Shown in pieces: positions 2,281 to 4,323 of a stretch of DNA of 64,000 bases. Position numbers and translations under genes: made by a program. Position 1 is the first letter of the stretch. Each line of letters opens with the position of its first letter. Source of the stretch: a virus; the IMG/VR virus record IMGVR_UViG_3300035703_000062, positions 10,338-74,337 of that record; one strand, 5' to 3'. Below the pieces are notes generated by a model. The model searched no databases. It was given only the letters and a program-made list of their open reading frames with translations, and had not been told where the DNA came from.

Positions 2281-2442
2281 GAACGCTCCTCAGGCTTAGC
2301 TCTCAGACGGGGACCATTTTGTTGGCGCCAACAATATGGTCTCTAGAGATGATGCCCAAACAGAGGAGCCTCTGGATCCGAGGTGTTGGCACACGCCGTG
2401 CAAATAGCATGGAATACTGGGTTCGATTCCCAGCGGTCCCCA
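2281..2442 (+). ncRNA. Putative structured RNA: long rod (2285-2369) followed by a tRNA-like cloverleaf (2374-2442)
   Basis: Perfect T-arm CTGGG-TTCGATT-CCCAG; D stem GTGT/ACAC; anticodon-like stem CCGTG/CATGG; imperfect acceptor stem; upstream TAGCAT -10-like hexamer at 2269-2274. Confidence 0.6.
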
Positions 2443-3218: not shown

Positions 3219-3363
3219 AAAAGAGGCAGATATTATTGCTTTAGTGCGAACTTTTATCTTGTTTTCATACATGGCCACCAATGTGTTTATTGTGGCTGGC
3301 GTTATTCGACACTGGAACAAGCAACTGCCTAGCTGTGTGCAGACACTAAGAAAGGGGGCCTGA
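3151..3363 (+). CDS. Small membrane protein (cyanophage-type WRLWAxALGEK family)
   Basis: One hydrophobic helix, NxFIVAGVIRHW motif; terminator at its end. Confidence 0.65.
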   Translation: MSKRKTAWRLWALALGEKAGKHEKEADIIALVRTFILFSYMATNVFIVAGVIRHWNKQLPSCVQTLRKGA

Positions 3364-3378
3364 GCCCCCTTTCCCTTT
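3350..3378. terminator. Bidirectional terminator between convergent units
   Basis: GAAAGGGGGC-ctga-GCCCCCTTTC. Confidence 0.75.
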
Positions 3379-3481
3379 GCCTAGCGCTTTGATCATCTGA
3401 ACGACGAGCAAACGTCGTGAGAGAGTGAAAAGCGCGTCAGCTCGCCAAGCTTACCACAGTGGCTCAAAACCAGTGACAGGT

Positions 3482-3601
3482 TCAGAACCAATGGGGCTTG
3501 GGAACGTAGGCAACGCCTCGATAAACGAGCGACGCCATTTGTGCTTCACGCAAACGAGCAGCTTTTTCAAGCTGTTGCTTGATCAGAGCGAGAGGGTTCA
3601 T
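3482..3601 (-). CDS. DUF4278-like small protein (39 aa; putative glutamine synthetase inactivating factor-like peptide)
   Basis: MNPLALIKQQLEKAARLREAQMASLVYRGVAYVPKPHWF with LxYRGVxY motif; GGAG RBS; directly downstream of a Gln-II riboswitch. Confidence 0.85.
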   Translation of the reverse strand: MNPLALIKQQLEKAARLREAQMASLVYRGVAYVPKPHWF

Positions 3602-3614
3602 GGTTGTTCTCCAT

Positions 3615-3667
3615 GATGCTGGCCCCGTTCCGTGCCAGCGCGTCATGCGCCCCTTGCGGGGTGAACG
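3615..3667 (-). promoter_or_regulatory. Glutamine-II riboswitch (Downstream-peptide RNA motif)
   Basis: CGUUCACCCCGCAAGGGGCGCAUGACGCGCUGGCACGGAACGGGGCCAGC: P1 CGUUC/GAACG, P2 CCCC-GCAA-GGGG, short P3, pseudoknot GCUGGC/GCCAGC just 5' of the RBS. Confidence 0.9.
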
Positions 3668-3674
3668 TACCTTC

Positions 3675-3683
3675 AGTGTATCA
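3675..3683 (-). promoter_or_regulatory. Extended -10 promoter for the riboswitch-DUF4278 transcript
   Basis: TGA-TACACT 7 nt upstream of riboswitch P1. Confidence 0.6.
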
Positions 3684-3697
3684 AAGCTTGCGCAAGG

Positions 3698-4061
3698 GTA
3701 GGAGCGGGGCGCATTAGCCCCATAACGTCCGTGCGGCGGACCTCCTACTTGCTTCATCGTCGCCTGGTACGGCAACAGCAGAAAGGACTTCCCCACCCTT
3801 TCTGCAACCGAGGATGCCTGATACATCCTCTAAACCACTCGGGCGTCCCCTCGTGGCTGCATCGCGAATGCCCAGAAACTATAGCGGTTTTTTCAGCTTT
3901 TCGTAATATTCGCCGGGAATGAAAATTTGCCAATACTTGGCAGCTATTGGCGCCAGGACCAATACACCACGCCACCTTGCTCGATCACCCATCGATGGTG
4001 GTGCCTAGCTTCCCGGAGCGGGACGCAAGCTTGGTGCTTGCGCCCCTTGAGGAAGTATTGC
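3698..4061. ncRNA. Hairpin-dense non-coding region, probably one or two structured RNAs
   Basis: About nine stems including a 3-way junction GTAGGAG/CTCCTAC and a long-range CAATACTT/AAGTATTG pair; -10-like TATAGT and TACAGT on the minus strand. Confidence 0.5.
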
Positions 4062-4080: not shown

Positions 4081-4323
4081 TCACACGTCGTAAATGCGGC
4101 ACTCCAGTGCGCTGGGATTGAGGCTGCAGAAACTGCCCCAGTGTGTTGCAGCGTCGAAAGGGCGCTTTGCATCCCTTTGATAGTCAGCCATGGCCTTTTC
4201 GTAGGCCCTCATGGCCTGATGGGCCTCTTCGCTGTCGGCGCCATGCGTATTGAAGGCCATGGTGAAATCGAAGGAAGCGTCTACCACTTTGGCGAATGCC
4301 TGATGGAGAGTTTCGTCGTCCAT
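4081..4323 (-). CDS. cp12: CP12-like Calvin-cycle regulator (divergent)
   Basis: C-terminal FCSLNPSALECRIYDV matches the CP12 CxxxPxxxEC(R/K)xYD motif; lacks N-terminal Cys pair and canonical AWDxVEEL. Confidence 0.75.
   Translation of the reverse strand: MDDETLHQAFAKVVDASFDFTMAFNTHGADSEEAHQAMRAYEKAMADYQRDAKRPFDAATHWGSFCSLNPSALECRIYDV

Follow-up and report, generated by a model that had tools for sequence, protein, structure and literature searches.

The window analysed here, 64,000 nucleotides of virus DNA (bases 10338-74337 of a 74,337-bp IMG/VR virus record), carries on its minus strand what by its sequence is a bona fide glutamine-II riboswitch aptamer, placed in the 5' leader of a genuine gene for a 39-aa peptide. 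In our best explanation, which as a whole we consider to have a probability of about 0.6, promoter, riboswitch and peptide gene make up a self-contained unit of an S-CBS4-like Synechococcus siphophage.

The virus record represents the complete genome, about 74 kb long, of a Synechococcus phage. It has direct terminal repeats and a CheckV completeness of 100%, the region round the cassette has about 80% nucleotide identity to the Synechococcus siphophage S-CBS4 (host Synechococcus sp. CB0101), and the gene order portal, terL, small genes is common to the window and S-CBS4. The claim of a preliminary description of this DNA that the riboswitch is encoded by a phage is thus borne out. The features of the cassette and its surroundings are as follows.

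4084-4323, minus strand: CP12-domain protein of 80 aa (Pfam PF02672, 32.7 bits against a threshold of 22.7)
3683-3675, minus strand: extended -10 element TGaTACACT (TG at 3683-3682, hexamer at 3680-3675), read from the sequence
3670-3618, minus strand: glutamine-II riboswitch aptamer (RF01704, 42.2 bits)
3667-3663, minus strand: 5' strand of the pseudoknot, CGUUC (C1-C5), read from the sequence
3662, minus strand: A6, mapped on the structure in PMC6698751
3661-3658 with 3653-3650, minus strand: helix P1, CCCC/GGGG, with a GCAA loop, read from the sequence
3649-3647, minus strand: linking strand CGC (C17-G18-C19), mapped on PMC6698751
3639-3634 with 3623-3618, minus strand: helix P2, GCUGGC/GCCAGC, read from the sequence
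3633-3624, minus strand: loop A-C-GGAACGGG, read from the sequence
3633 and 3631-3624, minus strand: A33 and G35-G42, mapped on PMC6698751
3630-3626, minus strand: 3' strand of the pseudoknot, GAACG, followed by G41 (3625) and G42 (3624)
3598-3616, minus strand: predicted hairpin UCAUGG/CCAUGA (RNAfold minimum-free-energy and centroid folds), a candidate part of the expression platform
3612-3609, minus strand: Shine-Dalgarno sequence GGAG, 7 nt upstream of ATG 3601
3601-3482, minus strand: peptide gene (ATG 3601, TGA 3484-3482), 39 aa, MNPLALIKQQLEKAARLREAQMASLVYRGVAYVPKPHWF
3345-3372, minus strand: probable intrinsic terminator, AAAGGGGGC-UCAG-GCCCCCUUU and then CUU
2374-2441, plus strand: tRNA-Ile, anticodon AAT (ARAGORN)

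The riboswitch aptamer and the borders of the cassette

A search with cmscan against Rfam 15 placed RF01704 at 3670-3618 on the minus strand with 42.2 bits, compared with a gathering score of 33 (E = 6.7e-7, model positions 1-60 of 60). This was the sole Rfam family at gathering score in the 64-kb window, and the same match has an E-value of 1.8e-10 in the whole phage record. RF01704 (Glutamine-II) is the family formerly known as the Downstream-peptide motif; another name for it is type 2 glutamine riboswitch. The preliminary description had recognized a complete Downstream-peptide motif with all its stems and had proposed this very comparison with the Rfam model; the match, above the gathering score and over the full model, confirms the assignment. 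The type 1 glutamine riboswitch (RF01739) had no match in the whole phage record.

Nucleotides were numbered by placing a direct reading of the sequence on the crystal structure of Huang et al. (PMC6698751). The conserved core defined in that study (C1, G2, U3, A6, C17-G18-C19, A33, G35 and C39-G42) is present in its entirety, and the nucleotides that contact the ligand in the crystal (C1, G2, G18, C19, C39, G40 and the A33:G42 pair) are all at their expected positions. One point of the preliminary description was wrong: it took GCUGGC/GCCAGC for the pseudoknot, whereas in the nomenclature of PMC6698751 these strands are helix P2, and the pseudoknot helix is CGUUC/GAACG plus the long-range pair C19:G41, which is present here as C3647 with G3625.

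The 3' end of the aptamer lies 16 nt before ATG 3601 with GGAG in between, and the promoter element lies 5 nt upstream of the aptamer. That the cassette has its own extended -10, as previously proposed, is backed by S-CBS4, in which the element is kept as TGaTATAGT and the sequence farther upstream diverges. A -35 element is absent at this promoter; the consensus promoter scan demands one and hence did not flag the extended -10. Transcription would start at about 3671-3668. At the place of the Shine-Dalgarno sequence, S-CBS4 and S-CRES3 have GGAG or GGGA. We also considered an NtcA box at the promoter and rejected it: GCAAGCTTTGATAC (3691-3678), the sole GTA-N8-TAC-like site, departs from the pattern at one position, has not been retained in S-CBS4 and is within chance, about one such site being expected per 200 nt.

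The probable terminator is a 12-bp hairpin in the fold of a 340-nt transcript, although the consensus scan gave no flag. No strong terminator-like hairpin comes before it downstream of the peptide gene, and a convergent plus-strand gene ending at 3363 shares it. In S-CBS4, the equivalent hairpin directly follows the stop codon, whereas in the window about 110 nt lie between stop codon and terminator. These extra nucleotides (3373-3481, minus strand), which are absent from S-CBS4, carry an extended -10-like sequence, TGgTAAGCT, at 3456-3448, and the stretch is strongly structured (z = -6.0 for the 340-nt transcript). With no terminator between it and the peptide gene, transcription from the riboswitch promoter could run on into it.

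The upstream side differs as well. S-CBS4 has a tRNA immediately upstream of the cassette and a terminator immediately downstream, whereas the window lacks the tRNA and has its terminator about 110 nt farther away. The tRNA gene of S-CBS4 (locus L002, 3893-3980; Rfam, 64.8 bits) directly precedes the riboswitch promoter, and the corresponding part of the window (3684-3720) contains none. Metagenome contigs align over 3485-3686 and pass into unrelated sequence from 3482 and from 3686. Because they leave the alignment at these points, the cassette behaves as a module bordered by the stop codon and the -10 element, and its border appears to be a recombination hotspot. Beyond 3686, the loose contig letters resemble a tRNA's 3' half, which recalls the situation in S-CBS4. 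In relatives, 3488-3680 is covered by contigs of one RNA library; start, strand and even transcription cannot be read from them, so that they may be taken as a weak hint of expression. Elsewhere in the window, the tRNA-Ile called at 2374-2441 precedes a metallophosphoesterase gene and is apparently an atypical tRNA-like element: the Rfam tRNA model reached its gathering score nowhere in the 64 kb, this position included.

Covariation and sub-types of the aptamer

We examined base pairing in a set of 13 aptamers of one sub-type, made up of the window, S-CBS4, eight viral contigs and three host copies. Standard pairs occupied 95.9% of the pair cells, compared with 28-55% when the partners were slid. 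Changes on both sides were seen in 11 pairs, and the pseudoknot and C19:G41 were invariant among these sequences; in six larger host genomes the pseudoknot covaries as CGUUG/CAACG. Between the window and S-CBS4 alone, P1 shows a compensatory change from C-G to U-A and P2 one from G-C to U-A.

Two layouts were apparent among the 45 distinct aptamers that we sorted. In the majority of host copies the linker is CGCAGUUCGA and P2 contains a bulged A. The second layout, in which the linker is CGCAUGA and an uninterrupted P2 follows directly on G42, is that of the window, of S-CBS4 and of eight among nine viral contigs, and it also occurs in three sampled host copies (L285-L287), one of which (L286) matches the crystallized Prochlorococcus RS01 aptamer in its P1 sequence. 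That the window belongs to this CGCAUGA/RS01 sub-type explains its moderate score, 42 bits as opposed to 55-75 bits in typical host copies: its P2 is shorter and has no bulged A.

The window RNA shares the P1-PK-P2 architecture with the glutamine-II RNAs of Prochlorococcus and marine Synechococcus (RS01, PMC6698751; the MED4 Yfr6 leader, PMC6212724), as well as all conserved ligand-site nucleotides and the place before a short ORF with a YRG motif. With the RS01 sub-type it further shares its linker, CGCAUGA, and the unbroken P2 that follows G42. It differs from the host RNAs in being encoded by a siphophage and in having a P2 of only 6 bp and a P1 of only 4 bp with a GNRA loop. The RS01 aptamer was crystallized with glutamine bound (PMC6698751); glutamine binding is therefore demonstrated for this layout, and by analogy the window sequence would bind it too.

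RF01704 was also found above its cut-off before homologous peptides in S-CBS4 (44.9 bits), S-CBS2 (66 bits) and S-CRES3 (52 bits). It further exceeded the cut-off in 9 of 50 sampled IMG/VR records (the sample being matches to a loose DNA pattern) and, with one to seven copies per genome, in 57 of the 101 genomes sampled from the host family. A DNA pattern applied to genome contigs proved too unspecific, most of its matches being chance ones from outside cyanobacteria. In picocyanobacterial chromosomes of 2.3-3.7 Mb, a single RF01704 copy precedes a peptide of 59-64 aa. Six such host loci (L317-L322, from genomes G074, G152, G105, G120, G082 and G113 of the same GTDB family) combine RF01704 at 44-55 bits with a downstream MNxLELIR..AQ..AYRGVxYVDAHHD..YRG peptide, so that the phage cassette has a direct cellular counterpart. 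The peptides of these loci match phrog_545 over its full length (E about 1e-15) and are 47% identical to the window peptide (E = 3e-9), but they have 59-64 aa and two YRG motifs, compared with 39 aa and one motif in the window. Their aptamers are of the other sub-type, with a CGCAG linker, a bulged A in P2 and the pseudoknot CGUUG/CAACG.

The cassette of the window is accordingly not new, for S-CBS4, S-CBS2, S-CRES3, 9 of the 50 sampled viral contigs and host chromosomes carry the same one; the form in the window is plain and canonical. Descriptions of the Downstream-peptide motif go back to 2010, and several papers already mention that cyanophages have glutamine riboswitches (PMC9602691, PMC9964418, PMC9004378). 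In the GenBank phage records the riboswitch is apparent from any Rfam scan, although we found no paper that links S-CBS4 or S-CBS4-like siphophages to it. The RNA family, its occurrence in cyanophages and the peptide family are all on record, and the discovery is modest. What gives it interest is the high abundance of glutamine-II riboswitches, which in marine picocyanobacteria rank with the commonest regulatory RNAs.

The 39-aa peptide and its family

The peptide consists of an N-terminal MNxLxLIK...KAARLxxAQ module and a single LVYRGVAY motif. Its sequence is 100% identical to that of S-CBS4 gp007 despite 17 synonymous codon differences and no non-synonymous one, which indicates that the ORF is real and under strong purifying selection. 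By codon arithmetic, six population variants from metagenome contigs are likewise all synonymous, and the exact peptide sequence occurs on 341 public contigs. The S-CBS4 counterpart with its leader (NC_016766, 4251-4458) also has the same extended -10 and likewise lies downstream of terL and a CP12-like gene. In GenBank, S-CBS4 gp007, S-CBS2 gp099 and S-CRES3 gp46 are annotated only as hypothetical proteins. A 39-aa LVYRGVAY peptide next to a ribosome binding site was part of the preliminary description, and GGAG 7 nt before the ATG together with the identity of gp007 supports it.

The assignment of the peptide to DUF4278 did not hold. Pfam DUF4278 (PF14105) reached 12.9 bits against a gathering score of 25.3 (E = 0.15) and aligned over profile positions 43-57 only, its last 15; no other Pfam family matched the peptide at E up to 1. 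The DUF4278 cut-off was likewise missed by the longer homologues from phages and hosts (19.6-23.6 bits). The peptide matches phrog_545 instead (E = 1.4e-11, 45.2 bits, profile positions 1-33 of 55), and the match ends after the first YRG. It is, by this comparison, a shortened member of phrog_545 with a single YRG motif.

The phrog_545 family was found by tblastn in 228 cyanophage records, including Syn9 gp198, S-SM1, S-RIM2 and S-CBS2, and has two modules, an N-terminal helix and a C-terminal half with two YRG motifs. Only the YRG half is homologous to DUF4278 peptides: aligned with the 33-aa DUF4278 peptides of hosts, it gave an hhalign probability of 95% (E = 1.7e-8). The N-terminal helix is linked more weakly to the host class MNNLLQIREK..., with a profile probability of 82% and by profile methods only, as BLASTP of the peptide against this class gave no match. 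The window peptide has one such motif, LVYRGVAY, against two or three [LV]xYRGxxY motifs in host DUF4278 peptides. In the ESM Atlas, the best scores for the peptide were 0.77-0.84, which we regard as leads only.

The T4-like cyanophage cluster T4-GC_937 (Syn9 gp198, S-MbCM6_186) belongs to the same family, with the signature MNxLxLIK..KAARLxDAQ..YRGVxY. Its members have 54 aa and two YRG motifs, whereas the window peptide stops after the first. Directly upstream of the homologous peptide gene of T4-like phages, RF01704 gave no match at gathering score. In these phages (L004 2244-2300 and 2440-2500 in S-MbCM6; L157 1210-1257 in S-SM1), a sub-threshold match to the glutamine aptamer, of 25-29 bits, is seen upstream of the preceding small gene, and a GGAACGGGGG half-site follows that small gene. 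In other IMG/VR contigs (L126-L134), the aptamer sub-type of the window precedes peptides of 16-17 aa, for example MTVTYVYRGIAYTKIVK, which comprise little beyond one YRG motif.

Might the cassette nevertheless be something other than a leader and a small gene? The 39-aa ORF is nested in a 114-aa ORF (3826-3482), as the preliminary description had correctly pointed out, and if the latter were the true gene, the putative aptamer would be coding sequence. The frame upstream of ATG 3601 is indeed open for 76 codons, and public gene callers have yielded similar extended proteins of 50-108 aa. Yet the open stretch is not conserved, being 27 codons long in S-CBS4, 23 in S-CRES3 and 6 in S-CBS2, and S-CBS4 has a tRNA gene at the position of the upstream part of the 114-aa ORF. 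Moreover, substitutions in the aptamer are compensatory in the stems and show no bias towards third codon positions, and the 114-aa product has no Pfam match. This possibility is therefore extremely unlikely; the longer ORF is an artefact that exists only because the aptamer happens to have no stop codon in that frame. A second alternative is that the phage passively carries a piece of host DNA, with a decaying aptamer and a non-translated ORF that have no function in it. Cyanophages often acquire host fragments, the peptide covers only positions 1-33 of a 55-position family profile, and T4-like phages such as S-MbCM6 have degenerate aptamer pieces beside the homologous gene. Such a passenger would hardly be expected to show 17 synonymous and no non-synonymous differences between phages that are about 80% identical, compensatory changes that maintain P1 and P2, ligand-site nucleotides that are all intact, a promoter and a Shine-Dalgarno sequence kept in S-CBS4, and an exact peptide on 341 contigs. 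Passive carriage is very improbable and, as far as sequence comparison can tell, close to refuted. On the contrary, several unrelated cyanophage groups keep the cassette under strong purifying selection, which argues for a real and portable function of the peptide.

Proposed switching mechanism and possible peptide function

If promoter, riboswitch and peptide gene form one functional unit, the RNA would be transcribed from the extended -10 promoter, starting a few bases 5' of the aptamer, and the leader would fold into P1 and P2. Glutamine would then stabilize the pseudoknot, as it does in the Prochlorococcus aptamer of the same layout (PMC6698751); we infer this for the phage RNA because every contact nucleotide is present. 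The bound fold would change how easily ribosomes reach their binding site 5-18 nt downstream, and more of the 39-aa peptide would be made at high host glutamine. In the proposal of Huang et al. (PMC6698751), the ribosome binding site becomes free once the ligand is bound, and the ON direction follows the type 2 leader of Prochlorococcus MED4, which raised GFP after ammonium addition (PMC6212724); this only in vivo test used the other aptamer sub-type (with the CGCAGUUCGA linker) in a heterologous host. By analogy with these systems, glutamine most likely stabilizes the pseudoknot and raises translation.

Folding predictions add a local feature. The 6-bp hairpin UCAUGG/CCAUGA takes in the AUG as well as the first half of the Shine-Dalgarno sequence and is only partly conserved in relatives. 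Against the mechanism just outlined, this hairpin would stay closed in both states, and constrained folding in search of the expression platform gave an accessibility of the ribosome binding site of 0.40 whether the pseudoknot strands were free or sequestered. A pairing between GUUCA of the 5' pseudoknot strand and UGAAC at the start codon, considered as an explanation of the conserved Met-Asn start, was rejected: RNAfold predicts it in host leaders of the RS01 type but not in the window, and it does not covary, as host leaders with a CGUUG strand still start with AUGAAC.

Two further alternatives concern the direction of the switch and the target of the peptide. The aptamer may bind glutamine and yet act as an OFF switch, the bound fold leaving UCAUGG/CCAUGA shut over the start codon; without ligand, GCAUGA of the linker (3648-3643) would pair with UCAUG (3616-3612) and release the AUG. 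The sequence offers three mutually complementary CAUG elements for this purpose (one each in the linker, ahead of the Shine-Dalgarno sequence and at the start codon), the hairpin is present in both the minimum-free-energy and the centroid fold of RNAfold, and the CGCAUGA linker is conserved in the sub-type of the window. RNAfold does not, however, choose the linker pairing, the CAUG before the Shine-Dalgarno sequence is not conserved in S-CBS4 (which has UCAUC) or S-CBS2, and the only in vivo data on type 2 leaders report induction by nitrogen excess (PMC6212724). We thus consider an OFF switch unlikely and prefer the ON direction. As to the target, the peptide could be a phage-encoded glutamine synthetase inactivating factor resembling IF17, lowering the activity of the host enzyme at high glutamine. 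The similarity to Synechocystis IF17 (GifB) is real up to a point: there, too, a glutamine-sensing leader precedes a small protein that shares the YRG-containing DUF4278 region, with the same feedback logic, and most glutamine riboswitches of hosts stand before gifB/IF17 or DUF4278 genes (PMC6212724). The homology of the YRG half of the phage family to host DUF4278 peptides points in the same direction, and a CP12 metabolic gene 480 nt upstream fits an island of host-metabolism genes. The IF17 leader, on the other hand, belongs to a different aptamer class, type 1 (three-way junction, RF01739), and IF17 has 149 aa, its inactivating part being the IF7-like C-terminal half, which is absent from the phage peptide. 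Within IF17, DUF4278 makes up the N-terminal part, which inactivation of glutamine synthetase does not require (PMC6316151). In addition, the short Prochlorococcus peptides lack the C-terminal IF17 residues needed to bind the enzyme (PMC6212724), and control of glutamine synthetase by inactivating factors has been reported to be absent in marine picocyanobacteria (PMC6316151). No IF7-like region with glutamine-synthetase-binding residues was found in the 39-aa window peptide, for which Pfam shows only DUF4278 below its threshold and nothing further at E up to 1. The role of such peptides as glutamine synthetase inactivating factors, named in the preliminary description, is a published hypothesis and no established fact, and PMC6316151 and PMC6212724 speak against it. 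The idea rests solely on the DUF4278 label, nothing in the sequence backs it, and we regard an IF17-like role as doubtful.

A role of the peptide in host nitrogen metabolism is plausible in more general terms. Tentatively, the peptide might be a glutamine-gated effector that retunes the nitrogen or carbon metabolism of the host during infection, through glutamine synthetase or another enzyme; we hold this to be possible rather than probable. If it is true, the peptide and the adjacent CP12 gene would form a small control island for carbon and nitrogen. The phage copy would also provide a simple, host-independent handle on the function of all picocyanobacterial YRG peptides, because host chromosomes hold the same pair of riboswitch and peptide. 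The window peptide is of the class with an MN-helix and YRG, whereas Klaehn et al. tested the DUF4278 class with tandem YRG motifs, of 33 aa or 55 aa. Apart from the peptides of 16-17 aa mentioned above, its 39-residue, single-motif form is the smallest natural one that we encountered, and it is convenient for binding and pull-down experiments. The CP12 gene is on the same strand as the cassette, and its product is the positional homologue of S-CBS4 gp008, which is annotated only as hypothetical.
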